Assembly (NCBI GenBank): GCA_963771175.1
Contig: CAVYSY010000047.1
Coordinates: forward strand, 32,001-96,000
Direction of reading: 5' to 3'
Length of the DNA: 64,000 nucleotides
Source: an uncultured delta proteobacterium
GTDB lineage: Bacteria; Myxococcota; Myxococcia; Myxococcales; Myxococcaceae
In this document: positions 460-64,000 of the stretch, piece by piece
How positions within the stretch are numbered: the first letter of the stretch is position 1
Layout: each line of letters opens with the position of its first letter
Position numbers and translations under genes: made by a program
Notes under the pieces: model-generated
Databases searched by the model: none
The model's input: only the letters and a program-made list of their open reading frames with translations
What the model was told of the DNA's origin: nothing

Positions 460-3466
<3,007 letters not shown>

Positions 3467-4689: not shown

Positions 4690-7627
4690 ATGAGACGAGA
4701 GTTCCCCTTCCACCTCGGCCACATCGCCACGCTCGTACTGGCGCTCCTGGCCCTCCCCTCCTGCTTCGAGCCCGTCAGCGTGTTCTGCCCCTCGGGCCTG
4801 GTCTGCCCCGCGGGCCAGAAGTGCGCCACCAAGCAGGACGTCTGCCTCAAGACCGACTGCGGCGACGGCATCATCCAGGCGGGTGAGTCCTGCGACGACG
4901 GCAACATCGTCGATGGCGATGGCTGCAGCCTCGACTGCAAGTCGACGGAGATCTGCGGCAACAGCGTCGTGGACGTCGCCGCGGGTGAGAAGTGCGACGA
5001 CGGCAACACCCAGAACGGAGACAGGTGCAGCGCGGACTGCCGCTCCAATGAGGCGTGCGGCAACGGCATCTCGGACACGGCCATCGGCGAGAAGTGCGAC
5101 GACGCCAACAACACCAGCGGCGACGGCTGCAGCGCGGACTGCTTGTCGAGCGAGATCTGCGGCAACAGGTACGTGGACACGGTCAAGAACGAGAAGTGCG
5201 ACGACGGCAACAACGAGAGCGGTGACGGCTGCAGCGGTGACTGCCGCTCCGAGGAGATCTGCGGCAACGGCTACGTGGACGTGGCCAAGGGCGAGGCCTG
5301 CGACGACGGCAACAACGTCAGCGGCGATGGGTGCAGCGTCGACTGCAAGTCCAACGAGACGTGCGGCAATGGCATCAAGGACACCGCCGCCGGGGAGCTC
5401 TGCGACGACGGCAACAACGTGAGTGGCGACACGTGCAGCGCCGATTGCAAGTCGGGCGAGGGCTGCGGCAATGGCATCGTCGACTCGGCCAAGGGCGAGC
5501 AGTGCGACGACGGCAACACCAGCGACGAGGACGACTGCCTCAACACGTGCGTGTTCGGCATCTGCGGTGATGGGAAGACCGACCGCGTGGAGCCGCGCGT
5601 CGAGCAGTGCGACACCTCGGTAGAGACGAGCACCTGCAACAACAACTGCACGGTGCAGAAGTGCGGTGATGGCATCGTGAACTCCAAGGCCGGCGAGCAG
5701 TGCGACAATGTCGGCCCCACGAACAGCGCCACCTGCGACAGCAACTGCACCATCGCCTACTGCGGCGACAGCTTCACCAACCCCCTGAACAGCGAGGTCT
5801 GTGACACGGGAGGCAACTCCACGACGTGCGACTCCGACTGCTCGCCGGCCGCCTGCGGCGATACCTTCCTCAACACGGCGGCGGGTGAGCAGTGCGACAC
5901 CGGTGGCGCGGAGACCTCGCTCTGCGACAGCAACTGCACGCTGGCCGCCTGCGGTGACAGCCACACCAACACGTCGGCGGGCGAGCAGTGCGATGACGGC
6001 AACGCCGGCAACGACGACGACTGCCTCACCAGTTGCAAACCCAACGTCTGTGGCGACGGACTGCGCAACACCCTGGGGCCGGCTCGCATCGAGGCCTGCG
6101 ACGACGGCAACACCACCACCGAGTCCGCGTGCCCCTATGGCACCCCCACCTGCTCCGCCTGCAACTCCATCTGCTCGGCCTCCCTGAGCCTGACGGGCAA
6201 CTACTGCGGCGACACCAAGGTCACGAACGCCGAGACGTGCGATGACGGCAACACCACCACCGAGTCCGCGTGTCCCTACGGCACGCCCACCTGCTCCGCT
6301 TGCGACGCGGCCTGCTCGGCGAACCTCAGCCTCACGGGCAATTACTGCGGCGACACCAAGGTCACGGACGTCGAGGCGTGCGACGACGGCAACACCACCA
6401 CCGAGTCCGCGTGCCCCTACGGCACGGCCACCTGCACCCCCTGCAACTCCACCTGCTCCGCCACCCTGAGCCTCACAGGCAACTACTGCGGCGACACCAA
6501 GGTCACGAACGCCGAGACGTGCGACGACGGGAACGCCGTCGACGAGGCCTCCTGCCCCTACGGCACGGCCACCTGCACCTTCTGCAACTCCACCTGCACC
6601 GCCAACCTGAGCCGCACGGGCAATTACTGCGGCGACACCAAGGTCACCGACGGCGAGACGTGCGACGACGGCAACACCACCACCGAGTCCGCGTGCCCTT
6701 ACGGCATGGCCACCTGCACCCTCTGCAACTCCACCTGCTCCGCCACCCTGAGCCTCACGGGCAGCTACTGCGGCGACAGCATCGTCAGCGATGGTGAGGT
6801 CTGTGACGAGGGCGACACGGTCGACGAGACCTCGTGCCCCTACGGCACGGCCAGCTGCACCCCCTGCAACAAGACGTGTACGGGCAGGCTCAACCTCACG
6901 GGTAACTACTGCGGCGACACCAAGGTCACCGATGGCGAGACGTGCGACGACGGGAACACCATCGACGAGGCCTTCTGCCCCTACGGCACGGCCACCTGCT
7001 CCCCCTGCAACTCCACCTGCTCCGCCACCCTGAGCCGCACGGGCGCCACCTGTGGCGACAAGGTCGTCAACGGCCCCGAGGCGTGCGACGACGGCAACAC
7101 CAACGCCTGCGGCACCTGCAACAACACGTGCATGGCGTCCCAGCTCTCGGCGGCCAGCGGTACCCTCACCTACGAGGCCAGCTCGTACAGCAGTTCCCTC
7201 AACGATCGCGAAACCTTCATGATCAGTGACGGCATCAACCCGCCCGTCACCTTCGAGTTCGACAAGAATGGGAGCTACGACAGTGCGCGGGTTCGCGTGA
7301 ATGTGGCGAACATTCTCGGGCAACCCGCTCTCGGCGAGCCAGGTGGCCACGGCCATCACGGATGCCATCAATGGCTCGGCATTCACCTTGAACATCACAG
7401 CGGTGGCCAATGCGAACATCGTGCAGCTCACGAACAACCAAGCGGGTTCGTTCGGCAACCAGGCCATCACCGAATCGGTCAACACCAGCCGCTTCACCGT
7501 GAGCGGGATGAGCGGTGGCGCTGGCTTCGACTGCTCGAGCGGCACCGGGTGCACGCGAAACGAGGACTGCGCTCCCGACCTGGTGTGCCTGGCCGACAAC
7601 ACCTGCGGAGTCGCCCCTCCTCCGTAA
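4690..7627 (+). CDS. Large Cys-rich repeat lipoprotein (Myxococcus cysteine-rich repeat/DUF4215), frameshift near 7310
   Basis: Lipobox-like LALPSC; many CGNG..E.CDDGN..SGDGCS..C repeats; the C-terminus continues in another frame to TAA 7625-7627. Confidence 0.88.
4954..5565 (+). repeat. Intragenic tandem repeat, 102-bp (34-aa) unit, about 6 copies
   Basis: TGCGGCAA recurs at 4954, 5056, 5158, 5260, 5362 and 5464. Confidence 0.85.
6097..7083 (+). repeat. Intragenic tandem repeat, 141-bp (47-aa) unit, 7 copies
   Basis: The unit [47 protein letters not shown] starts at 6097, 6238, 6379, 6520, 6661, 6802 and 6943. Confidence 0.92.
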
Positions 7628-7759
7628 GACGTAGCCAAGGCTGAGAGGCCGCCGGCACGACCTGACGCCTCCCCCGCGGGAGCCTCTGGCCGTTGCCGGC
7701 GGTGTCGTTTCCACCTTCACTCCCAGGATGGGCGCGCGCTTCGGATAGAGTCCGCGCCC

Positions 7760-8581
7760 ATGTCATTCCAGCGAATCTGGAAGGTGGGCCTCTGCCTCCC
7801 CCTCCTCTCCGTCGGGGTGTTCCATCCCCGGGTGGCTCGGGCCGAGTCCCCCGCCCGGCAAGCCAACGAACTGCAGACGTACCTCCAGGCCGCGCTCCGG
7901 CTGTACGAGAGCCTGGATTACGAACAGGCCCTGGAGAAGCTCGCGCGCGCCAAGGGCTACGTGCGCGACCTGGAGGACGACGCCCTCCTCTCCTTCCATG
8001 AAGGCATCATCCTCTCGGAGCTGAACCGCTGGGAGCAGGCCAAGGCTGCCTTCCGTGCGGGTCTGCTGTTGAAGCCGGAGGCACGGCTTCCGCTGAAGGT
8101 ATCGCCCAAGGTGGAGAAGGAGTTCGAGGTGGTACGCGCCGAGGTGCAGCGGGAGCTGGCCGCGCAGCAGGCCAGACAGGGGCCAGAGGCCCGTCGCCCC
8201 TCGCTGGAACCCACCGTCTCCACTCCCGGCCTCACGGCGACCTCCATGTCGCGCCCCCGGGTGCTCTCCTATGCCCTGATGGGCGGCGGGGTGGCGATGA
8301 CCGGAGCCGGCGTCTACCTGGGCCTGTCCAGCCTCTCCTTCAACGCCCGGAAGCGGGAGATGACGATTGACGAGGCCGTGGGGGCTCGGGCCACGGCCGG
8401 GACCCAACTGACGGTGGGCTCGGTGCTGCTGGGAGCGGGGCTGGCGGCGCTCGGTACCGGCACGGTGCTGCTGCACCTGTCGGAGGGCGGCACTGGAACC
8501 GCCGCTACCGACTCGAAGACCCTTCTGGTCCTGGTCCCCCAGCCCGGCGGCATCGCCCTGGGCTCGGCGGGGAGTTTCTAG
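7760..8581 (+). CDS. Secreted TPR protein with a C-terminal hydrophobic hairpin
   Basis: Signal peptide (ARA); TPR-like AALRLYESLDYEQAL and LPLKVSPK motif; two Gly-rich hydrophobic segments; ends LVPQPGGIALGSAGSF. Confidence 0.75.
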   Translation: MSFQRIWKVGLCLPLLSVGVFHPRVARAESPARQANELQTYLQAALRLYESLDYEQALEKLARAKGYVRDLEDDALLSFHEGIILSELNRWEQAKAAFRAGLLLKPEARLPLKVSPKVEKEFEVVRAEVQRELAAQQARQGPEARRPSLEPTVSTPGLTATSMSRPRVLSYALMGGGVAMTGAGVYLGLSSLSFNARKREMTIDEAVGARATAGTQLTVGSVLLGAGLAALGTGTVLLHLSEGGTGTAATDSKTLLVLVPQPGGIALGSAGSF

Positions 8582-8604
8582 CTCTGGCTCCGCTCGAGGA
8601 AGAA

Positions 8605-9897
8605 ATGCGTGCTTGGCTGTTTCGCTGTTGGGGGTTGTGTCTCGTCGTACTGGCGGGCTGTAGCGGGCTGCTGACGGATTACGAGGGCACGCTCTGCAAT
8701 CCGGGGGGCGGCTGTATCGAGGGCTACCACTGCGTGGAGCAGACTGGGCGCTGTGAGCCCGACACGGAGAAAGAGTCCGTGTGCGGCAACGCCACCGTCG
8801 AATTCGCGGGGGGTGAGAAGTGCGACGACGGCAACACGCACTCGGGCGATGGCTGCAGCGCTGACTGCCTGTCCAACGAGCTGTGCGGCAACGGCATCGT
8901 GGACCGGACCGTGGGCGAGGTGTGTGACGACAGGAACACGCGCTCGGGCGACGGCTGCAGCGCCGACTGCCTGTCCACAGAGTTCTGCGGCAACGGCTAT
9001 CTGGACTTCAACAAGGGCGAGCAGTGCGACGACGGCAACGCCGAGAGCGGTGACGGCTGCAGCGGCGACTGCAAGTCCAACGAGACGTGCGGCAACCGCA
9101 TCGTGGACACGGCCAAGGGCGAGGTCTGCGACGATGGCGGCCCCACGAGCGGCGACGGCTGCAGCTCCGACTGCAGGTCCAACGAGACGTGCGGCAACGG
9201 AGTCAAGGACACGGCCAAGGGCGAGGTCTGCGACGACGGCAATACCGTGAGCGGCGACGCCTGCAACTCCGACTGCAAGGGGGGCGCGGGCTGCGGCAAC
9301 GGCGTGCTCGACCCCGGGGAGCAGTGCGACACGGGAGGCCCCCCCTCCGCCACCTGTGACAGCGACTGCACCATCGCCTATTGCGGCGACGGCAGGGTCA
9401 ACACCCCGAGGGGCGAGCAGTGCGACACGGGAGGCAACTCCAAGACCTGTAACGCCGACTGCACCATCGCCTCCTGCGGCGACAGCAGGGTCAACACCGC
9501 GGCGGGCGAGTTCTGTGACGATGGCAACACCGCCAACGAGACCTCGTGCCCCTATGGCACCCGCGAGTGCGCCCGGTGCAACTCCTCCTGCTCGGCGGGA
9601 CTGAACCTCACGGGCCGCTACTGCGGTGACAACATCGCCACGGACAACGAGGCCTGCGACGATGGAAACACCGTCACCGAGACCACGTGCCCCTATGGCA
9701 CCGCCAATTGCGTCACGTGCAACTCCTCCTGCTCGGCGGCACTGTCCCTCACGGGCCGCTACTGCGGCGACGGCAACACCACGGACGCCGAGGCGTGCGA
9801 CGACGGGAACACCGTCACCGAGACCGCGTGCCCCATGGGCGTGCCGAGCTGCACCGTCTGCAACGCGAGCTGCTCCGCCACGGTGAGCCTCCCCTGA
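8605..9897 (+). CDS. Cys-rich repeat lipoprotein (DUF4215), shorter paralog of 4690..7627
   Basis: Lipobox VLAGC; the same 34-aa and 47-aa repeat classes. Confidence 0.88.
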   Translation: MRAWLFRCWGLCLVVLAGCSGLLTDYEGTLCNPGGGCIEGYHCVEQTGRCEPDTEKESVCGNATVEFAGGEKCDDGNTHSGDGCSADCLSNELCGNGIVDRTVGEVCDDRNTRSGDGCSADCLSTEFCGNGYLDFNKGEQCDDGNAESGDGCSGDCKSNETCGNRIVDTAKGEVCDDGGPTSGDGCSSDCRSNETCGNGVKDTAKGEVCDDGNTVSGDACNSDCKGGAGCGNGVLDPGEQCDTGGPPSATCDSDCTIAYCGDGRVNTPRGEQCDTGGNSKTCNADCTIASCGDSRVNTAAGEFCDDGNTANETSCPYGTRECARCNSSCSAGLNLTGRYCGDNIATDNEACDDGNTVTETTCPYGTANCVTCNSSCSAALSLTGRYCGDGNTTDAEACDDGNTVTETACPMGVPSCTVCNASCSATVSLP

Positions 9898-49936: not shown

Positions 49937-51245
<1,309 letters not shown>

Positions 51246-53432: not shown

Positions 53433-55560
53433 ATGTCCGTGCCCCTGCCCCAGCCAGCCGACATGCGTGAAGGGCGCTCCTCCCGCGAGGTGGACGCCTT
53501 CTGCGTCCAGTTCGCTCCGCGAGCCCCGGGTCACCCCGCCGTCCGAGACCTGCAGCAGCTCCTGGCCGACGTCCCCCAGGAGGGCGCTCGAGGCGCGGCT
53601 GCAGTGGGTGGAGCGGTGGGTGGAATGGCTGCGCGACCCCAAGCCCGCCCTGGGGTTGATGGAGCCCGCCGAGCCCGAGGCCCCCGCGGCGGTCACCGCG
53701 CCTCGCGCTGCTGGTGCGGGTGCTGGAGGACCCGGGCCGCGGCCCGCCAGTCCGTGGGCGCCCTCGTGCGCGAGGTGCTCGCCGGGACGAGCGGGCTGAA
53801 GCTCTTCGCGCAGGTGGGCCTGCTCGCCGGTCAGGGCTTCCTTGGCGAGGTGTCGGACCGGCTCGCCCGCCGCCTGCTCCCCGCCCCGCCCGAGGACCGG
53901 CAGCTCTCGGCGAGCTGCTGCCGCGCCTCTTTCCGGAGCCGGAGGACGCCGCCTGGCTGGAGGCCCTGCCCCCGGCGCTGCTGGCACGGCTCTCCACGCT
54001 GCTGGGCGAGCGAGACCCTACCTCCGGCGCGCGGGCCCGCGGCAGATGGTGCGCGCCGACCTGGTGGACGCGCTCTGCCTGCTGGCCGTGCAGACGGCGG
54101 CCCTGGGCCTCACCGAGGACGTGCGGGACCGCTGCCCGGAGGTACGTCGCTTCCGCTCCTCGCCCTTCCTGCGCTGCGCCGGGTGAGCGAGGGCGTGCTC
54201 GCCCGCGACGCGCGCGCCGGACAGCGCTGCGGGAGCTGGGCCGACGTGCTGGAGGAGTGCCGGCAGGTGGTGGCCACGTGCACGCAGCCACCTGGAGACG
54301 TACGGGGTGAGCGTGGACCTGGTGTACCGGCTGGAGCGCATCCGCCGGAGCCTGGAGCGCATGGAGGCCATCGGCCGGGTGCTGGCGCACGCCGCCCGGC
54401 GAGGCCCGCTGGCGCGAGGGGCTCGCGCTGCTGGCGGACCTGCTGCGCCGCGCGCACGCGGACCGCTCGGTGCGCGCGGTGGTGGCGAGCAACGTGCGGC
54501 TGCTGGCGCGCAAGGTCATCGAGCGCGCGGGGGCCACTCGCGGCGAGCACTACATCACCACCACCCGCGCCGAGTACCACCACATGGTGCACTCGGCGGC
54601 CGGCGGCGGGCTGCTCACCGCCGTTCACCGCCGGCCTCAAGTTCGTCGCTCGCCACGCTCGCGCTGGCGCCCTTCTTCTACGGGCTGTCGCCGCGCTCAA
54701 CTACGTGGGCAGCTTCGTGCTGATGCAGTTGCTGGGCTTCACGCTGGCCACCAAGCAGCCGTCCATGACGGCGGCCACGCTGGGCGGGCGCGCATCGAGC
54801 CAGGGCGGCCGCGGGCGGGCGGCTGTCGCGCCTGGTGGAGCTCATCCCCCGCATCACCCGCTCGCAGCTCGCCACGGCGCTGGGCAACCTGGGCATCGTG
54901 CTGCCGGCGGCGGTGGGCGCTGTCGCTGGTCTTCGCAGTGGTGGAAGGGACGCCCGCTGCTCAACGACGGCCCAGGCGCAGTACGTGGTGGACAGCGCTG
55001 CACCCCTGGAAGAGCGGCACCCTCTTCTACGCGGCGCTGACGGGCGTGCTGCTGTGGCTGTCCAGCGCTCGCGGCCGGGTGGCTGGAGAACTGGGCGGTG
55101 TACCGGCGGCTCCCCGAGGCGCTCGCGCACCACCGGGTGCTGCGCCGGGTGCTGGGCGAGTCCGGGGCACGGAAGCTGGCTGAGCCTCTTCGCGCACCAC
55201 ATCGCCGGCACTGGGCGGCAACGTGAGCATCGGCGTGCTGCTCGCGCTGCCGCCCGTGGTGGGGGCCTTCTTCGGGCTGCCGCTGGACGTGCGCCACGTG
55301 ACGCTGTCCTTCGGGCAGCTCTGCCCTGGCCGGGTACGCGCTGGGGCCCGAGGCCGTGCTGCAGCCGGACTTCCTCGCGGCGGTGGCGAGGCATCGGGCT
55401 CACCCTGGCCATCAACTTCGGGGTGTCCTTCTCGCTCGCCCTGGCCGTGGCGCTGCGAGCGCGTGACGTGCCCTGGACGGACGCGCTGCGACTGGTACGC
55501 GGGGTGGGGGTCCGCTTCCTGAGGGAGCCGCGCTCCTTCCTCCTTCCTCCTCGGGAATAA
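53433..55560 (+). CDS. PF10136-like ('site-specific recombinase' Gcr) polytopic membrane protein (many frameshifts)
   Basis: GVSVDLVYRLERI, GEHYITTTRAEY, SAAGGG, FTLATKQPSMTA, RSQLATALGNL, GLPLDVRHVTLS, NFGVSFSLAL. Confidence 0.75.
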
Positions 55561-55682: not shown

Positions 55683-58322
55683 ATGAGTGACTCGACCCAC
55701 AAGCCGCCGCGCCTTGCTCTCGCCTATGCCAGCCTGCTGGTCCGCAAGCCAGGAATGGTCCTCCTCGCGATCCTCGCACTGTTGGCCGTGTCGGGGTGGG
55801 CGATGTCGAAGCTGACCATCAACTCCAACCAGCTCGACCTCATCTCGCAGGACCTCCCCGAGGTCGTCGAGGTCAAGCGCGTCATCGACATGGTGGGTGG
55901 CAGCGGCTACCTCATGATGGCCTTCCGTTCCGAGAGCGAGCCCACGCTCAAGAAGGTGGCCGACGACATCGCCGCGAAGCTGCTGGCGGACAAGGAGCAC
56001 GTCCGCTTCATCACCTACAAGGTGCCGGTCGAGTTCGTGCAGCAGAACATGGCCCTCTTCATCAAGACGGAGGACCTGGCCGAGGGCAAGCGCCGCATCA
56101 TGGCGTACCTGAAGGATCAGCTGCGCCGCAACAACCCCTTCTTCATCGAAATCCAGAAGACCGAGCCGGTGAAGCTCGACCTGACGGACCTCATCGACAA
56201 GTACAGCAGCGTCGGCAAGAAGAGCATCCGGGATGACTACTACATCTCGAACGACCGCAAGATGATGCTCATCCTCATCAAGCCGATGTGGGACTCCAAT
56301 CAGCTCGGCCAGACCAAGGAGTTCGTCGAGCAGCTCCGCAAGGACCTCGCCGGCTACTCGGCCGGCGGCGTGAAGCTGGTGGAGGACTACGACAAGATGG
56401 GTGACGACAAGCTCGTCGCCTACGGCTTCACCGGCTCCTACAAGACGGCGGTGGACGACTCGTACGCCATCGAGGAGTCGCTGCAGCCGGTGTCGCTCAT
56501 CGCCTTCGCGGCCATCTTCGTCATCACCATCCTGGCCTTCCGCAAGTGGGTGCCCACCCTCATCGTGGCCAGCGGCACGGTGATCGGCACCGTCATGACC
56601 ATGGGCTTCACCTACGTCACCGTGGGCGAGCTCAACATGATCACCAGCATCCTCGGCGGCCTGCTGCTGGGGTTCGGCATCGACTACGGCATCCACTTCA
56701 TCTTCCGCACGCGGCTGGAGCTGGGCCAGGGCAAGCGCTACGACGACGCCATCCGCGACGCGGTCATCAACGCGGGCCGGCCGGCGCTGGTGTCCGCGGT
56801 GGTGACGTCGGGCTCGTTCTTCGTGCTGATGCGCAGCGAGTTCCGCGGCTTCAGCCAGTTCGGCTTCCTGGCCGGGTGCGGCACGTTCCTCATCGGCGTG
56901 CTGCTGTTCGCCTGGAGCCCGGCGCTGCTGGCGCTGCTGGGCCGCATCAACCCCGAGCTGCCCAAGAAGCTCATCGGCGAGATGAAGCCGCCGGCCACCC
57001 AGAGCGCCTCCACGGGCAAGGAGCTGCGCATTCCCCGGCCCGGTCTGATGCTCGTGGTGGGCACCATCATCGTGGGCTTCATGTGCGCCTTCGCCCTCCC
57101 CTGGAGCGACGTGGACGTGCCCACGGATCGTCCCGCCTCCATGGCCGATCGCATCAAGGCCGGCGTGCGCTTCAACTACAACAGCCGCGCCCTCATCCCC
57201 GAGGGCCAGTCGTCGGTGCGGCTGCAGGATGAGATCAGCGCGCGCTTCAACATCTCCAGCGATCCCATCGCCGTCTACACGAAGACGCTGGAGGAGACGA
57301 AGGCCGTCTACGACGAGCTCACCGATCCCAAGAACAAGGAGAAGTACTCCGCCATCGACCAGGTGGTGAGCATCTACACCTTCGTCCCGCCGCCGGGCAC
57401 GGCCGAGGCCAACGCGAAGATCCTCACGGAGTGGAAGGAAGAGCTGAAGGACATCGACGTGGCGGCGCTGCCCCCGGAGGCGCAGGACAAGGCGGCCCTC
57501 TTCATGAAGATGCTGGAGGCCAAGCCCTTCGACGTGCACGGGGTGCCGGACGTCTACGCCTCGCAGTTCCGCCACCTGCCGGAGACGAAGCCGGAGAACC
57601 ACGGCTACCTGACGTTCATCTACCCGAACGTGGACCTGTGGGACGGCAAGAAGATGCTCACCTTCGTCGATCAGACGAGCAAGATTCCCACGCCGGAGAT
57701 CAAGGATGCCTCGGGCAAGGTCATCGCCGCGTCACAGGATCGCCGTGCGGCGGGCTCGGCGCCGCTGTTCGCGCGGCTGGCGCGCATCGTGCTCTCCGAT
57801 GGCCAGTGGGCGGTGCTCCTCGTCACGCTGTGGATCCTGGTGATGCACTTCCTGGACTTCCGCAACGTGAAGCTGGCGCTGGCGTCCGTCATCCCGCTCA
57901 CGGTGGGCCTCGCCATGATGCTCGGCATCATGACGCTGGCGGACCTGCACCTGAACTTCATGAACATCATCATCCTGCCCATCCTGCTGGGCTTCGGGGT
58001 GAGCCACGGGCTGTACCTGCTGCACCGCTACCTGGAGGGCACCTCGCCGGTGGTGGCGCTGCGCAGCGTGGGCGCGGCGGTGGCCTCGTCCACGCTGACG
58101 ACGGCCGCGGGCTTCGCCGCCCTCCTGGCCGCCAGCCACAACGGCCTCAAGTCCATGGGCCTCGTGGCCTGCATCGGCCTCATCACCACACTGGTGGTGT
58201 CCTTCACGGTGCTCGCCGCGGTGATGCAGGTGATGTGGGACCGGCTGCCGCGCAAGCTGCAGGACGGCGTGCAGCCGCCGACTCCCGCCCACAAGCCCTC
58301 GGACAAGTCCGAGGCGGCCTGA
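55683..58322 (+). CDS. MMPL/RND-family transporter (HpnN-like)
   Basis: Two 1+5 TM halves with large periplasmic loops; LLGFGIDYGIH and LLGFGVSHGLY. Confidence 0.9.
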   Translation: MSDSTHKPPRLALAYASLLVRKPGMVLLAILALLAVSGWAMSKLTINSNQLDLISQDLPEVVEVKRVIDMVGGSGYLMMAFRSESEPTLKKVADDIAAKLLADKEHVRFITYKVPVEFVQQNMALFIKTEDLAEGKRRIMAYLKDQLRRNNPFFIEIQKTEPVKLDLTDLIDKYSSVGKKSIRDDYYISNDRKMMLILIKPMWDSNQLGQTKEFVEQLRKDLAGYSAGGVKLVEDYDKMGDDKLVAYGFTGSYKTAVDDSYAIEESLQPVSLIAFAAIFVITILAFRKWVPTLIVASGTVIGTVMTMGFTYVTVGELNMITSILGGLLLGFGIDYGIHFIFRTRLELGQGKRYDDAIRDAVINAGRPALVSAVVTSGSFFVLMRSEFRGFSQFGFLAGCGTFLIGVLLFAWSPALLALLGRINPELPKKLIGEMKPPATQSASTGKELRIPRPGLMLVVGTIIVGFMCAFALPWSDVDVPTDRPASMADRIKAGVRFNYNSRALIPEGQSSVRLQDEISARFNISSDPIAVYTKTLEETKAVYDELTDPKNKEKYSAIDQVVSIYTFVPPPGTAEANAKILTEWKEELKDIDVAALPPEAQDKAALFMKMLEAKPFDVHGVPDVYASQFRHLPETKPENHGYLTFIYPNVDLWDGKKMLTFVDQTSKIPTPEIKDASGKVIAASQDRRAAGSAPLFARLARIVLSDGQWAVLLVTLWILVMHFLDFRNVKLALASVIPLTVGLAMMLGIMTLADLHLNFMNIIILPILLGFGVSHGLYLLHRYLEGTSPVVALRSVGAAVASSTLTTAAGFAALLAASHNGLKSMGLVACIGLITTLVVSFTVLAAVMQVMWDRLPRKLQDGVQPPTPAHKPSDKSEAA

Positions 58323-58533: not shown

Positions 58534-58745
58534 GTGAATCTCGCAGGAAAGCAGCGAGGTGGTCAGTCCGTGTCGAATTCGCGCACCCTCTGGCGCGCTT
58601 CGGCCAGCAGCTTGCTGTTCCAAAGTCACCTTGCCTTCGCTCATCTCGACCGCCCAGCTCAGATTCCAACTGCCGGAAAGACCGAAATCGGCACCTGCTT
58701 TGTGCCGAAGCCGGCCAGCATCGGCATCTCCGCCGGATGTCCCCA

Positions 58746-58982
58746 TCACGACTTCATCTCCTCCTCGAGGATTCGCCGCCCTTCAGCGAGGAGCTGGACC
58801 AGTTGGTCATAGGAAAAAAGCTTGTTGGCTCCTCCCTCATGCAGCGCCACCTCGATCTCGCCTTCGTCAGTGGCGGAGATGTCGAACAGCACCGTGTCAC
58901 CCTCCACGAGCTCGAAGATCGGATGCTCGCGATCGAGGGGAGAGAACTTCCGAAAGTGTGGATTCCTTACTCGGCTGTTCAA
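58746..58982 (-). CDS. Small acidic protein, probable orphan immunity protein, 78 aa
   Basis: Lower GC; GAGGAG RBS and a TTG start overlapping the stop of the upstream toxin stub. Confidence 0.6.
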   Translation of the reverse strand: MNSRVRNPHFRKFSPLDREHPIFELVEGDTVLFDISATDEGEIEVALHEGGANKLFSYDQLVQLLAEGRRILEEEMKS

Positions 58983-59173
58983 GGTCTTCTCCTCAGGGAC
59001 TGATCACGCTGGAGGACCGCCTTGGAGGCATCGGCGCTGTCGCTGGCGGCGGCCAGCGTGGGCAGGCCCGACAGCAGCAGCACGAGGCAGGTGGCCAGCA
59101 CGCCCGCAGTCAGGGAGAGGCCTCTCCGCGCCCCGCCGCGAACCGGGCAGCCGCTCGTCGTGGCAGCGGACAT
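58979..59173 (-). pseudogene. Toxin stub: signal peptide and N-terminal leader followed by only 8 further codons
   Basis: MSAATTSGCPVRGGARRGLSLTAGVLATCLVLLLSGLPTLAAASDSADASKAVLQR is nearly identical to the N-terminus of the 59594..60446 toxin, then DQSLRRRP*. Confidence 0.7.
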
Positions 59174-59239
59174 CATCCACCCCCCCAGGCCCAACGAGAC
59201 GAAGGCGCCAGGCCTCAAGCTGGAGTCCGGCTGCGGGAA
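59005..59239. repeat. Direct repeat, copy 1 (235 bp)
   Basis: Aligns by eye to 60277..60510 with about 17 differences (roughly 93% identity). Confidence 0.95.
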
Positions 59240-59581
59240 TCAGAACGATTCGAGGCTCGACTCGAAAAAGTCGAGGTCGTTCTCGATGACCTTCATGCCA
59301 GCCGCCACGATGACGAAACGCTTCCCATGGCTCACAATCACATGCACATCCCGCTCAGCCACGTCCTCGCGAAAGGCGACATGGACTCGACGGAGGTCAT
59401 CGGCTGTGGGGTTGCTGATCTCAATCTCCCCGAGTTTGGTCGGGAGATTCACGAAGTCCACTCCCGCGAAGATGATATCCACGTTCTTCGGGTGCCGTTC
59501 GGTGCGTGCGCTTCGGAGCAGAAGCTGATCGTGGCTGACCCGGAACTCCCAGACGCGGAAGGTTCGTCCTGACAGATTCAT
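59240..59581 (-). CDS. Probable cognate immunity protein, 113 aa
   Basis: Starts 12 nt after the toxin stop; GAGGTG RBS; RTFRVWEFRVSHDQLLLRS...NVDIIF motif; lower GC. Confidence 0.7.
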   Translation of the reverse strand: MNLSGRTFRVWEFRVSHDQLLLRSARTERHPKNVDIIFAGVDFVNLPTKLGEIEISNPTADDLRRVHVAFREDVAERDVHVIVSHGKRFVIVAAGMKVIENDLDFFESSLESF

Positions 59582-59593
59582 CGAGCACCTCAA

Positions 59594-60446
59594 TCACTGA
59601 AACGGGTTCGGCACGACCTTGCCATCTCGGAAGAACGTGATCCGCTCCCACCACTGCGGGTTGGTCTTGATTTGGAGCAACTCCCAGTCAGTAGCTCCGC
59701 CGCGCCCCGCCGCTGAACGAGACACTGCGCGCCAAGCGTCATAAATTCCAGTCAGATTAAAACTGACGCGGTTCGCGGGGTTGCTCATGATCTCGGTGAA
59801 CGCCGACTTCCACTTCGTGGGATTGGCGCGAGCCCACTCCTTCCATGTGCTTCCACCGACCGACTTCGCGAAATCATCGAGGTGGTCGGCAAGGCCGAGC
59901 GCGATGTGCTTTCCCGGCGTTGCGGCAAGCTGGGGGGCCTTCAACACGGGCGGCAGGGCAGCAGCGTTCGTTCCCGCGGCCTGGCCTACGACCTTCAAGG
60001 TATCGGCCATGCCCTGGTAGTACTGGCTGCTCAGTTGCGCCTGTGCCTCGTCCAGCTCGTCGGTGCCGAAGTTCGCCGGCATCGGCACCTCCGGCGCGGC
60101 CTCCCGGAAGAAGGCCCGCCGCTCCTGGGGCGACATCTCCATGAGCTGGTCCGCCGTGACACGCTCCGCAGCCTCCGCACCTCCTCTCTCGGCCGGTAAG
60201 GGATGACCGGCCGGGTCGGCGGTGGGTGGGCGAGCGGAAACAGGGGCCGCCGCGCTGGCTGACTTGCGCTTCTTGCCACGCTGAAGGACCGCCTTGGAGG
60301 CATCGGCGCTGTCGCTGGCGGCGGCCAGCGAGGGCAGGCCCGACAGCAGCAGCACGAGGCTGGTGGCCAGCACGCCCGCAAGTCAGGGAGAGGCCTCTCC
60401 GCGTCCCGCCGCGAACCGGGTAACCGCTTATCGTGTCAGCGGACAT
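59594..60446 (-). CDS. Secreted polymorphic toxin-like protein, about 283 aa (one extra base near 60381)
   Basis: ATG overlaps the end of the barrel gene; signal peptide; lower-GC C-terminal domain IALGL...TDWELLQIK.NPQWW.RITF...NPF resembles RHS-type toxin tips. Confidence 0.7.
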
Positions 60447-60510
60447 AATCCACTCCCAGGCCCAACGAGACGAATGCGCTAGGCCTCAGGCTGGAGTCCG
60501 GCTGCGGGAA
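60277..60510. repeat. Direct repeat, copy 2 (234 bp), spanning the barrel 3' end and the toxin 5' end
   Basis: Near-identical to 59005..59239. Confidence 0.95.
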
Positions 60511-61778
60511 GAAGAGAGTGCCCCCTTGCGCCAGCCCGTAGAAGTGCCGGGCGAAGCGGCAGCGCACCTCCGCCGAAAAGGTGTAACGCGCGCCGGGCTG
60601 CCCCACGGCCGTCGCGATGGCGCTGAACGCCAGCCCCATGCGCCGCTGGGCGAGGTAGGTTGACACACGCGCGTCGGCGTCCACCCGGCCCCAGGTGAAG
60701 ACCTCTGCCGCCACCGAGAGCTCGAGGTTGCGCTCCGCGGCGTCGCGGTCGATGGAGTCCCACCCCACCACCAACTCCCCGAAAGCGGAGTAACCGTCCG
60801 GGAAGGGCGCCTCGGCCGCAGGCACCGGCGAAGGTCCAGCGGCGGTGAAGCGAGCGAGTTCGTAGTCCGGGCCGAAGAAGCCCTGGCGGAAGCCGCCCCG
60901 CTGGATCCGCGCCTCCAACCGCCCCCCAGCTCCAGCGTGGGGCTGCGTTGCTCCAGCCCGAGGCCCACCACCGCGCCCCATGCGCCAGGCCGTTCAGGGC
61001 GTGCGCCTCCTCCGGCCACCGCGTGCACCTGGAAGTCCTCCTGGAAGATGAACACCGCGTTGAGGTCCGCATGCGCCAGCGTCACCGGGGCGGAGCGACC
61101 ACCGGCCCGGCCAAAGTCGTGCACGGCCGACAGGGAGAGGGTGTAGCGTCCGGGCTCCCTGGGACGGCCTGCCACCAGGTGCACCAGGTCCAGTGCCACC
61201 TCGCCGCCCAGCAGGCGAGCCCCCAGCACGTCGCTCCCAAACAGCTCGGCGTACGCCGGACCCAAGGTCCCCGTGAGGTAGGCGCCGGCGGGGTGGTAGT
61301 CCGGGTTGGCGCGGTTGCTGTAGCGCCGCACCAAGTGCCCATTCAGCAGACTGTAGTCCTCCAGCGCCCCAACCCACAGCGCCACCGGGGAGGTGTCCTG
61401 GCCCAACCTCAGCGCGCGTACCACTTGGCCGAAATCAGACAGGCTGTCCCAGTCCTCCGCGCGCAACAACCCCCCGCCGCGCTCCGTCCCGGCGGCACCG
61501 CTCGCCACCCGCAGCCGCAGTGGCGCGCCCACGTCGAAGCCCCAGTCGTCGCCCCCGTCCAGGATGAAGCTCGGCGCCACCTGCGCGAAGACCTCGAGCG
61601 AGCCAGCCTGTGCTCGCGGTCGCAGCGTCAGCCCCGTCAGCTCCAGCCGAGCCCAGGAGTGCACCCCCTCGTCCACGGAAATGGAAGCCCCGCCATCCCC
61701 GGTCCGCGCCTCTCCCTGCTCCATGGCCCCCGCATCGCCCTGAGTCAGCAAAAGCATCACGAGAAGCGTGCTCGTCAT
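60436..61778 (-). CDS. Predicted outer-membrane beta-barrel protein, SitB-like, about 447 aa (frameshift near 60925)
   Basis: Short signal peptide; GGAGGA RBS; amphipathic strands throughout; EDWDSLSDFGQVVR and GHLVRRYSN motifs; ends FVSLGLGVDYVR*. Confidence 0.65.
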
Positions 61779-61821: not shown

Positions 61822-62550
61822 TCAGGCCGAGCCCGTGGCCCTACGCCACGCCCCGAGGAGGTTGTCGACGACCTCCTGCAGGCCCACGCCCTTCGTCACC
61901 TGGGTGAAGACGAAGGGCCCCTCACCGCGCATCTTCCGCGCGTCGCGCTCCATCACCGACAGGTCCGCGCCCACGTGCGGCGCCAGGTCCGTCTTGTTGA
62001 TGACCAGCAGGTCGGACTGGGTGATGCCCGGCCCTCCCTTGCGCGGCACCTTGTCCCCGCCCGCCACGTCGATGACGTAGACGGTGTAGTCCGCCAGCTC
62101 GCGGCTGTACTGCGCCGCCAGGTTGTCGCCGCCGCTCTCCACGATGAGCAGCTCCGGCTTGAGCTCCTCCATGAGCTCCTCGAGCGCCAGCAGGTTGTGG
62201 CTGATGTCCTCGCGGATGGCCGCATGCGGACAGCCGCCCGTCTCCACCGCCCTGATGCGCTCGGGCGAGAGCGCCTTGTTGCGCACCAGGAACTCGGCGT
62301 CCTCCTTGGTGAAGATGTCGTTGGTCACCACGCCCAGCCGGTACTGGTCCCTCAGCGCCCGGCACAGCGCCAGCACCAGCGCCGTCTTCCCGCTCCCCAC
62401 CGGCCCGCCGATGCCGATGGTGAAGGACCTCGACGAGAAGTCGCGCCGCTTGGGCGCCTCACGCTCGTGGTAGTGGCCCGGGTGGTCCCAGTCCTCGTGC
62501 GTGTGGTCGTGGTCGTCGTCATGGCCGTGGCCGCGGTGGTCGTCGTGCAT
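61822..62550 (-). CDS. ureG: Urease accessory GTPase with a His-rich N-terminus
   Basis: [27 protein letters not shown]. Confidence 0.96.
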
Positions 62551-62558
62551 GGTTCACC

Positions 62559-63221
62559 TCAGGAAAGGAAGAGCCGCGAGTAGAGCCGGTCGTGCGTGGC
62601 GCCGAGCAGGTCCATCAGCGGCGACGTCTGCGCCAGCGACTCCAGGCCCAGCCCGGCGCAGGACTCGAGCACCGCGTCCAGCACCGGGGCGCACTGGTGC
62701 TGGAGCTGGTGGGACTCGTGCGTGCCCACGATGCCCAGCCGCACCGCCGCGGACAGCGCGCCCCGCAGGGTGAGGGACAGGCAGAGCCGCTGCGAGTCCA
62801 ACAGCTCGACGTCCAGGGCGCGCAGCACCGCGCCGAAGAGGGGCGCGTGGTGGTAGCGCGACTTCGCCTCCCGAACGGCCTGCCGCAGCGGCGCCACGGG
62901 CCCGGGGAAGATGCGCGCGCACGTGTCCAGGAAGGCCCGCCCCTGCGTGCGGCTCGCCCGGTTGGCCACGTGGTTGGTGAGGAACGCCTCCGTGCGAGCG
63001 TCCAGCGACTCCAGCGTGCCGGGCTCGCGCCAGGCCTCGCTCAGCAGCGGCAGCGCTCCGTACCCCGTCTGCCACAGCAGCTCGCGCACGAAGCGCTCCA
63101 GGCCCTCGCCGCCGCGCACCTCGCCCTGCTGCACCGCCGCCTCCAGGCCCCCCGAGTGCGCGAAGCCCCCAGTGGGGAAGCCCGAGTCGGCCAGTTGCAA
63201 CACCCTCCACGGGGAGCCCAT
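62559..63221 (-). CDS. ureF: Urease accessory protein
   Basis: LQLADSGFPTGGFAHSGGLE, SAAVRL, HDRLYSRLFLS. Confidence 0.93.
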   Translation of the reverse strand: MGSPWRVLQLADSGFPTGGFAHSGGLEAAVQQGEVRGGEGLERFVRELLWQTGYGALPLLSEAWREPGTLESLDARTEAFLTNHVANRASRTQGRAFLDTCARIFPGPVAPLRQAVREAKSRYHHAPLFGAVLRALDVELLDSQRLCLSLTLRGALSAAVRLGIVGTHESHQLQHQCAPVLDAVLESCAGLGLESLAQTSPLMDLLGATHDRLYSRLFLS

Positions 63222-63232
63222 GGCACCGTCCC

Positions 63233-64000
<768 letters not shown>

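Follow-up and report, generated by a model that had tools for sequence, protein, structure and literature searches.

A probable polymorphic toxin-immunity locus behind a SitB-like barrel gene in a member of the Myxococcaceae

Can an outer-membrane barrel of the kind that assists the lipoprotein toxins of myxobacteria serve a toxin that has no lipid anchor? The question is raised by a locus in a stretch of 64,000 nucleotides (nt) of contig CAVYSY010000047.1 (positions 32,001 to 96,000; assembly GCA_963771175.1, an uncultured member of the Myxococcaceae). This stretch is called the window here, and all coordinates are positions within it. Six features follow one another on the minus strand: a barrel gene, an overlapping gene for a secreted toxin, a gene for a 113-residue protein, a copy of about 236 nt of the barrel/toxin junction, a toxin stub, and a gene for a 78-residue protein (Table 1). 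The coordinates of all six bear out the gene order given in an initial annotation of the stretch. We regard the locus, with a probability of about 0.8, as a polymorphic toxin-immunity locus that has been joined to an accessory barrel gene of the sitB type and lies inserted 43 nt downstream of ureG. That this identity and the delivery mechanism proposed below should both be correct falls somewhat short of an even chance.

Behind its signal peptide the toxin consists of a low-complexity linker of about 45 residues, a helical module of about 85 residues and a C-terminal tip of 105 residues. A search with the whole protein retrieved 25 proteins, one of them the window's own. Thirteen share only the N-terminal part and carry another C-terminus with an AHH-containing motif; the remaining 11 share only the tip, and two of these carry the Rhs-shell Pfam domain PF25023. 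The tip is found behind 11 other N-termini, Rhs tails included. A shared N-terminal part with unrelated C-termini, together with the same tip on unrelated N-termini, is the pattern of a polymorphic toxin. When the leader (residues 1-155) was compared with 1.84 billion representatives using phmmer, ten proteins were found: the window's own, three more signal-peptide forms, one fragment whose start lies within the module, three pieces that lack a start and have other C-termini, and two Rhs sequences (an Rhs tail of 328 residues and an Rhs protein of 2069). Among 25 module-bearing proteins examined, the 23 tails of at least 50 residues were clustered with BLASTP, two others being too short, and the module is followed by nine unrelated C-termini. 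The leader thus recurs with variable C-termini, as had been anticipated, and not with an invariant one. Nor is the architecture a peculiarity of one strain, since proteins from other sources that combine signal peptide and leader make up 13 of the 25 matches to the whole toxin and 3 of the 10 matches to the leader. Because there are at least 16 such proteins, among them P0018 of Archangium lipolyticum, P0011, P0012, P0152 and P0155, the small signal-peptide-plus-module architecture appears to be a maintained form.

The initial annotation had also taken the leader for a signal linked to the barrel, and this part of it has to be given up. Judged from its distribution, the conserved core of the leader is a portable pre-toxin module and not a barrel-specific address, because it also occurs on Rhs proteins and in front of the nine tail clusters. 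Its Rhs carriers are two database proteins (P0158 and P0160) and an open reading frame (ORF) of 2087 codons in a Corallococcus locus (L002), which contains SpvB, FG-GAP, TcdB_toxin_midN and RHS_repeat domains and is followed by a 90-residue gene. On Rhs proteins the repeat shell ends about 70 residues ahead of the module, and the toxin tip follows the module directly. What belongs to the barrel-linked repeat described below is confined to the signal peptide and some 13 residues after it, as far as AVLQR. As a separate observation, the Rhs proteins of L002 (2316-8579) and P0160, which both combine SpvB, FG-GAP, TcdB-mid and RHS domains, begin with a lipoprotein-like signal ending in LVASC; by this feature they would be outer-membrane-anchored Rhs shells in myxobacteria.

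The boundary between module and tip is exactly where the guanine-plus-cytosine (GC) content of the toxin gene drops, from 0.70 to 0.60. The values are 0.708 for the barrel, 0.703 for the leader and 0.693 for the window, against 0.597 for the tip, 0.576 for the 113-residue gene and 0.570 for the 78-residue gene, and the lower GC content already noticed at the tip is therefore real. AlphaFold2 gives the tip an alpha/beta fold with a predicted local distance difference test score (pLDDT) above 90, and the module a pLDDT of about 80-90 across residues 70-120. Residues invariant among the aligned tip relatives include the His of HLDDF and the Glu of ATDWELLQ. Neither the window's tip nor the 11 tip sequences gave a Pfam match above noise, there was no NCBIfam match, and a tip profile against PDB sequences reached a best E of 0.25. 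Plasmid searches gave no match for the tip or for the 78-residue protein. An ADP-ribosyl cyclase cluster in the ESM Atlas matched the tip with a score of 0.87 at rank 12. A SEFIR/TIR- or ADP-ribosyl-cyclase-like fold is offered as a weak lead, and an NAD-using activity as a guess.

The protein of 113 residues is a candidate immunity protein to the tip, on the strength of the position of its gene (spacing and ribosome-binding site in Table 1) and of the low GC content that the two share. Counting the window's own protein, its family has 28 members at E<=0.01, mostly 113-128 residues long and with a strongly conserved set of motifs; a profile of the family found nothing among PDB sequences. Among the listed relatives of the tip and of the 113-residue protein, no second pairing of the two was seen. 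Orphan immunity genes usually stand alone in islands of small hypothetical genes. One distant relative, the only match of the plasmid search, is an unannotated ORF on the Hymenobacter sp. HDW8 plasmid NZ_CP049908.1 (L003, 3974-4354) with 32-35% identity to the 113-residue protein; it sits among annotated small hypothetical genes with no tip nearby, and from this arrangement the plasmid locus looks like an immunity-gene island. The 78-residue protein has no Pfam or NCBIfam match, and an ESM Atlas feature score of 0.92 relates it to a cluster of hypothetical proteins of 76 residues. Its position points to a probable orphan immunity gene.

How the two small genes came to lie behind one another is suggested by the junction repeat. 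Positions 59005-59244 and 60277-60515 correspond in three collinear blocks of 90-97% identity; aligned pairwise over about 236 nt, the copies differ by 13 substitutions and two indel events and have 94% column identity. This is far beyond chance, and the repeat that the initial annotation described stands. It takes in 23 codons from the 3' end of the barrel gene and about 55 from the start of the toxin gene, and ends after AVLQR; LPSLAAASDSADASKAVLQR is present in the main copy, and the stub differs from it by one change (LPTL...). With the repeat, the stub and the 78-residue gene all downstream, and with the exchange of modules and tips among relatives, the earlier idea is upheld that the locus is that of a polymorphic toxin and includes a displaced, orphan cassette. 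The two limits of the repeat, one exactly behind the stop codon of the 113-residue gene and the other at a residue common to both copies, fit a crossover in the barrel-3'/signal-peptide sequence. Recombination that used this sequence as a homology arm would have left the repeat: an incoming unit of barrel end, toxin and immunity gene would have been placed upstream, and the older allele pushed downstream and reduced to the stub and the probable orphan immunity gene. The tip would have arrived together with its 113-residue immunity gene as a low-GC cassette. Both copies are barrel 3' ends fused to the same signal peptide, so the linkage of barrel and toxin existed in two diverged alleles and predates the event. 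Just downstream of the 78-residue gene, a stretch on the minus strand (58690-58735) has 31-34 nt with 82-84% identity to the section of the module that is best conserved. In frame it reads EMPMLAGFGTKQ against EVPMPANFGTDE in the toxin, a weak match (tblastn E 0.04 in a search space of 560 nt), and it may be a third, older remnant.

The export signal of the toxin sets it apart from the SitA lipoproteins. The signal peptide of the main copy contains no cysteine, so that there is no lipobox; among the SitA1-3 relatives in the eLife supplementary tables, all have xxGC or xxAC once truncated, contig-end and insertion-sequence-interrupted ones are left out. The stub and three relatives have a Cys at a position within the hydrophobic core that other relatives fill with W, G, S or L, and for this reason the idea of a cryptic lipobox at LATC was rejected. 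A Tat signal was likewise rejected, because the Arg-Arg pair is not conserved in relatives. The region between signal peptide and tip is also short. SitA escort domains are about 375 residues long in the available text of PMC8546572, whereas the corresponding region here measures about 130 residues and is common to Rhs proteins. None of the ten phmmer matches to the leader is a lipoprotein of 400-800 residues, the leader being set apart from escort domains by their description. The annotation was right, then, that this toxin has neither a lipobox nor a delivery region of SitA size.

The barrel, on the other hand, agrees with what is written of SitB. A word-seeded HMMER search found 404 relatives at E<=1e-3; most of the 120 listed are of about 440 residues, and every organism-named row among these is from the Myxococcota (Corallococcus, Archangium, Myxococcus, Pyxidicoccus, Cystobacter, Stigmatella and Hyalangium), several genomes having more than one copy. 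The two barrel halves and a full-length relative have no Pfam or NCBIfam match, and the barrel profile found nothing among PDB sequences. An AlphaFold2 model of the closest full-length relative consists almost wholly of strands, at moderate confidence (pLDDT 65, predicted template-modelling score 0.60). Foldseek found 76 PDB matches to it at E<=1e-3, and all those listed are outer-membrane barrels, MOMP, AlgE, OccK, Wzi and FimD among them; because the template-modelling (TM) scores are only 0.3-0.45, the fold is taken as that of a generic large barrel. According to the available text of PMC5562445, SitB has a type I signal, no detectable homology and a predicted barrel fold, is encoded upstream of sitA, and overlaps it by 11 bp in all three DK101 cassettes; there and in the available text of PMC8546572, SitB raises the efficiency of SitA transfer. 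The protein of the window is a predicted outer-membrane beta-barrel with no known domain, restricted to Myxococcota among the named rows, and its gene lies directly upstream of the toxin gene with an overlap of the published length. It is thus probably of the SitB family, and the resemblance to sitB-sitA-sitI loci that had been remarked on is borne out.

Two of the genes are not readable as they stand. The beta-barrel gene was correctly recognised as such, the family being one of predicted outer-membrane barrels, but it is not a single ORF. In alignments with full-length relatives, and in tblastn with the closest of them (P0032), the frame changes at a run of six G residues (60922-60927); the match to P0032 splits at its residue 260, with 284 N-terminal residues in one frame and 164 C-terminal residues in another. 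The frame that begins at the toxin's ATG is broken 66 nt (22 codons) downstream by one T more than the stub copy has (60380-60381), so that the toxin of 283 residues in the initial annotation is obtained only if one base is skipped there. The literal ORF therefore has 259 codons and begins at GTG 60373, which lacks a usably placed ribosome-binding site, and the signal peptide read from it has no charged n-region. The stub copy keeps one frame over the corresponding stretch, from its ATG to the end of the signal peptide. Similar breaks occur elsewhere in the window, as judged from split Pfam domain matches, a script for frameshifts based on the GC phase of third codon positions being too noisy alone. 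The gene for S-adenosylhomocysteine hydrolase (ahcY, 49940-51223, minus strand) is split over at least two frames, with breaks near 50240 and 51000, one frame with profile positions 70-138 and NAD-domain positions 1-131, the other with NAD-domain positions 135-161 and hydrolase positions 220-291. A kinase/STAND NTPase gene (500-2500, plus strand) is divided among four stop-to-stop frames, with matches to positions 1-41, 81-152 and 155-204 of Pkinase and to positions 1-32 and 94-242 of nSTAND1, and is either a pseudogene or a low-quality stretch. Because other genes of the window, the housekeeping gene ahcY included, are broken in the same way, both breaks in the toxin locus are most simply put down to assembly indels, which we hold to be the more probable cause.

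Table 1. Features of the toxin locus (positions in the window)
Feature	Position	Strand	Remarks
SitB-like outer-membrane beta-barrel gene (probable)	60436..61778	-	Start ATG 61778 with GGAGGA 5 nt before it; stop ends at 60436; read in two frames in the assembly (61778-60927, 60930-60439)
Overlap of barrel stop and toxin start, 11 nt	60436..60446	-	ATG 60446-60444, TGA 60438-60436
Toxin gene (predicted)	59594..60446	-	Ancestral start ATG 60446 with GGGAG 6 nt upstream; literal ORF 60373-59594
Type I signal peptide	60317..60446	-	Arg-Arg n-region, hydrophobic core, AAA then SD; no cysteine
Pre-toxin module	59924..60172	-	Residues ~68-150 of the 259-residue ORF; helical; common to Rhs proteins
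C-terminal toxin tip, 105 residues	59597..59911	-	Low GC; alpha/beta fold; no known family
Candidate cognate immunity gene, 113 residues	59240..59581	-	12 nt past the toxin stop; GAGGTG ribosome-binding site
Second copy of barrel-3'/toxin-5' junction	59005..59244	-	Recombination footprint; starts right after the 113-residue stop
Toxin stub	58979..59176	-	Signal peptide and residues to AVLQR, then 8 unrelated codons and a stop
78-residue gene, candidate orphan immunity	58746..58982	-	TTG start overlaps the stub stop by 4 nt

Among known systems the closest is the sitBAI cassette. Shared with it are the order of barrel, toxin and immunity gene, the polymorphic C-terminus of the toxin, a barrel protein with a type I signal and a predicted beta-barrel fold and without any known domain, the 11-nt overlap, and a barrel family confined, among named rows, to Myxococcota with several copies per genome. 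The differences concern the toxin and its setting: it lacks the lipobox by which SitA is defined, has 259-283 residues against 430-790 in most complete SitA relatives, and bears the short Rhs-type region in place of an escort domain, and the locus lies beside urease genes and not in an Mx-alpha-like element. The locus resembles a sitBAI cassette and probably shares its barrel family, while its toxin fails the lipobox and escort-domain tests for SitA. In the literature covered, SitB is described only with SitA lipoproteins; a 2019 PNAS survey of SitA families lay outside that coverage and may bear on the point.

Other toxin systems share single elements with the locus. Rhs/YD toxins have both the module and the tip at their C-termini, and like the locus they combine a low-GC tip and immunity cassette with a displaced remnant downstream; the window's protein, in contrast, has no Rhs repeats or shell (no RHS match), and a Sec signal peptide replaces the whole Rhs body. 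In the Maf loci of Neisseria there are arrays of alternative C-terminal cassettes with immunity genes, and MafA is a lipoprotein. Polymorphic Sec-dependent toxins with a conserved N-terminal region and a variable C-terminus, and an adjoining gene for an outer-membrane protein, are features that the locus has in common with MafA/MafB/MafI as these are presented in the available text of PMC7738311, where MafA is an outer-membrane protein forming large oligomeric complexes and can be the secretion route of MafB. The likeness is in logic only, as neither barrel nor toxin has a Pfam or NCBIfam match to Maf families and the accessory protein of the window is a predicted monomeric beta-barrel. CdiB/CdiA loci likewise place a barrel gene beside a polymorphic toxin gene, acquire orphan modules by recombination at a conserved junction, and have a C-terminal region in two parts, an entry part followed by the toxin. 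They differ in that the barrel of the window is not of the Omp85/TpsB type and its toxin has no two-partner secretion (TPS) domain and no filamentous stalk, again by the absence of Pfam and NCBIfam matches.

The following route would fit such a locus. The toxin would carry a Sec-type signal peptide, cleaved by signal peptidase I, and Sec would place it unlipidated in the periplasm. There the SitB-like barrel, its translation coupled to that of the toxin through the overlap, would bind the toxin and hold it at the outer membrane, thereby standing in for the lipid anchor of ordinary SitA toxins. Outer-membrane exchange by TraA/B would next take the toxin out of the cell along with the membrane; a less probable variant is hand-over to the surface, in the way MafA serves MafB. 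Once in the recipient, the tip would be carried across the inner membrane by the pre-toxin module and act in the cytoplasm, and in kin the 113-residue protein would neutralise it. Exchange is favoured for the delivery step because published work credits SitB with one activity alone, that of making transfer more efficient. We put forward capture by the barrel with delivery by exchange as a tentative proposal, clearly on the lower side of even odds. A complex model of the mature leader with the barrel as two unaltered halves had a score of 0.01 (mark 0.32), which bears on binding in neither direction.

Several points weigh against the view taken here of the locus. Toxicity of the tip, immunity and contact between barrel and toxin are predictions from sequence, and structural comparison gave no significant relative for the tip, SEFIR/ACT1 at E 0.06 being the best Foldseek match of the whole-protein model. 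The barrel is likened to SitB only by properties that the two share. Its linkage to the toxin is documented in this window only, in two alleles: the two were not seen together elsewhere among the 120 of 404 barrel relatives listed, the 25 matches to the toxin and two further loci. These loci were the ones confirmed out of 34 pattern matches in a scan of genome contigs with the leader alignment; neither contains the barrel, the 113-residue gene or the 78-residue gene, one (L001) beginning inside the toxin gene at a contig end and the other (L002) being the Rhs gene. Finally, as sequenced, the barrel and the toxin start are both out of frame, and since many other long ORFs of the window are intact, a uniformly high error rate does not follow from the broken ones.

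These last facts are also what would be expected of a locus in decay, in which the frameshifts in the barrel and at the start of the toxin are genuine and toxin delivery has ceased; what use remains would lie in the two small immunity genes alone, which would shield the cell from relatives with live toxins. The stub and its orphan gene would then mark one toxin already lost here, the poorly placed GTG and the uncharged signal peptide behind it would be symptoms of the loss, and the 113-residue relative that stands as a lone orphan on the Hymenobacter plasmid would be a parallel. Against decay, the ahcY and kinase/STAND genes carry similar breaks, the break in the barrel sits in a homopolymer of six G, and the sequences themselves are well kept: alignment to relatives covers both barrel halves, at 64-70% identity, and the whole length of the toxin body, and shows no stops or further breaks. 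We judge decay unlikely, although it deserves the most attention of the alternatives. A hardly less likely reading, the one proposed in the initial annotation, makes the barrel a dedicated exporter that passes a soluble toxin to the surface or the medium in the manner of two-partner or Maf systems and independently of outer-membrane exchange. A large barrel is indeed predicted, with AlgE, Wzi, FimD and MOMP and OccK porins among its Foldseek matches, the toxin has no lipid anchor, and MafA/MafB would be a precedent as far as the available text of PMC7738311 goes. The barrel, however, has no POTRA/Omp85 or ShlB signature and the toxin no TPS domain, going by Pfam and NCBIfam; the model has the moderate confidence and low TM-scores given above; and the only role published for the SitB family, in the available text of its source articles, is in the efficiency of outer-membrane exchange of inner-leaflet lipoproteins.

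A further alternative, which we rate as improbable and a shade behind the other two, is that the barrel is no more than a neighbour by chance. An Rhs-type cassette would have recombined into a former sitBAI locus and replaced the sitA body; the barrel would be uninvolved, and the toxin would stay in the periplasm or exit otherwise, by vesicles or type II secretion. It would account for a module and a tip that both occur on Rhs proteins, for a barrel-linked repeat that covers only the signal-peptide region, and for a barrel and toxin that were seen together nowhere else among the listed relatives. It accords less well with the proteins from other sources, at least 16, that share the small architecture of signal peptide and module, with two diverged junction alleles that both link the barrel 3' end to this signal peptide, and with the retention of an 11-nt coupling overlap and a good ribosome-binding site.

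The locus sits between ureG (62550-61822; cobW/UreG domain) and a convergent gene for an MMPL transporter (55683-58322). Directly upstream, on the minus strand, the urease genes ureC (partial), ureF and ureG occupy 61822-64000. Promoter and terminator scans gave no signal above shuffled expectation. Beyond the MMPL gene, about 4 kb from the toxin locus, a plus-strand ORF (53433-55040) matches positions 334-394 of the 639 in the profile of the site-specific recombinase family PF10136; this partial match could mark a mobile region or reflect a further frame break. DUF4215 repeats are typical of secreted myxobacterial proteins, and two adjacent ORFs of 984 and 430 residues on the plus strand (4690-9897) carry N-terminal cysteine-rich repeats of this kind.

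What SitB does is an open point in the field of outer-membrane exchange, and a natural combination of a SitB-type barrel with a toxin that has no lipid anchor would allow a clean test both of binding by the barrel and of the need for a lipid in transfer. The tip and the 113-residue protein form a candidate toxin-immunity pair of no known family, and the fold of the tip is predicted with enough confidence to make it assayable. It is a doubtful but consequential possibility that SitB-family barrels are general docking or export platforms whose clients extend beyond lipoproteins; the soluble Sec toxin would then be either the first unanchored cargo of outer-membrane exchange or a case of Maf-like export. 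If so, the pre-toxin module would be a portable device for entry through the inner membrane, used by lipoprotein-type Rhs shells and minimal toxins alike, and one exchangeable module would link the worlds of SitA-type and Rhs-type toxins.

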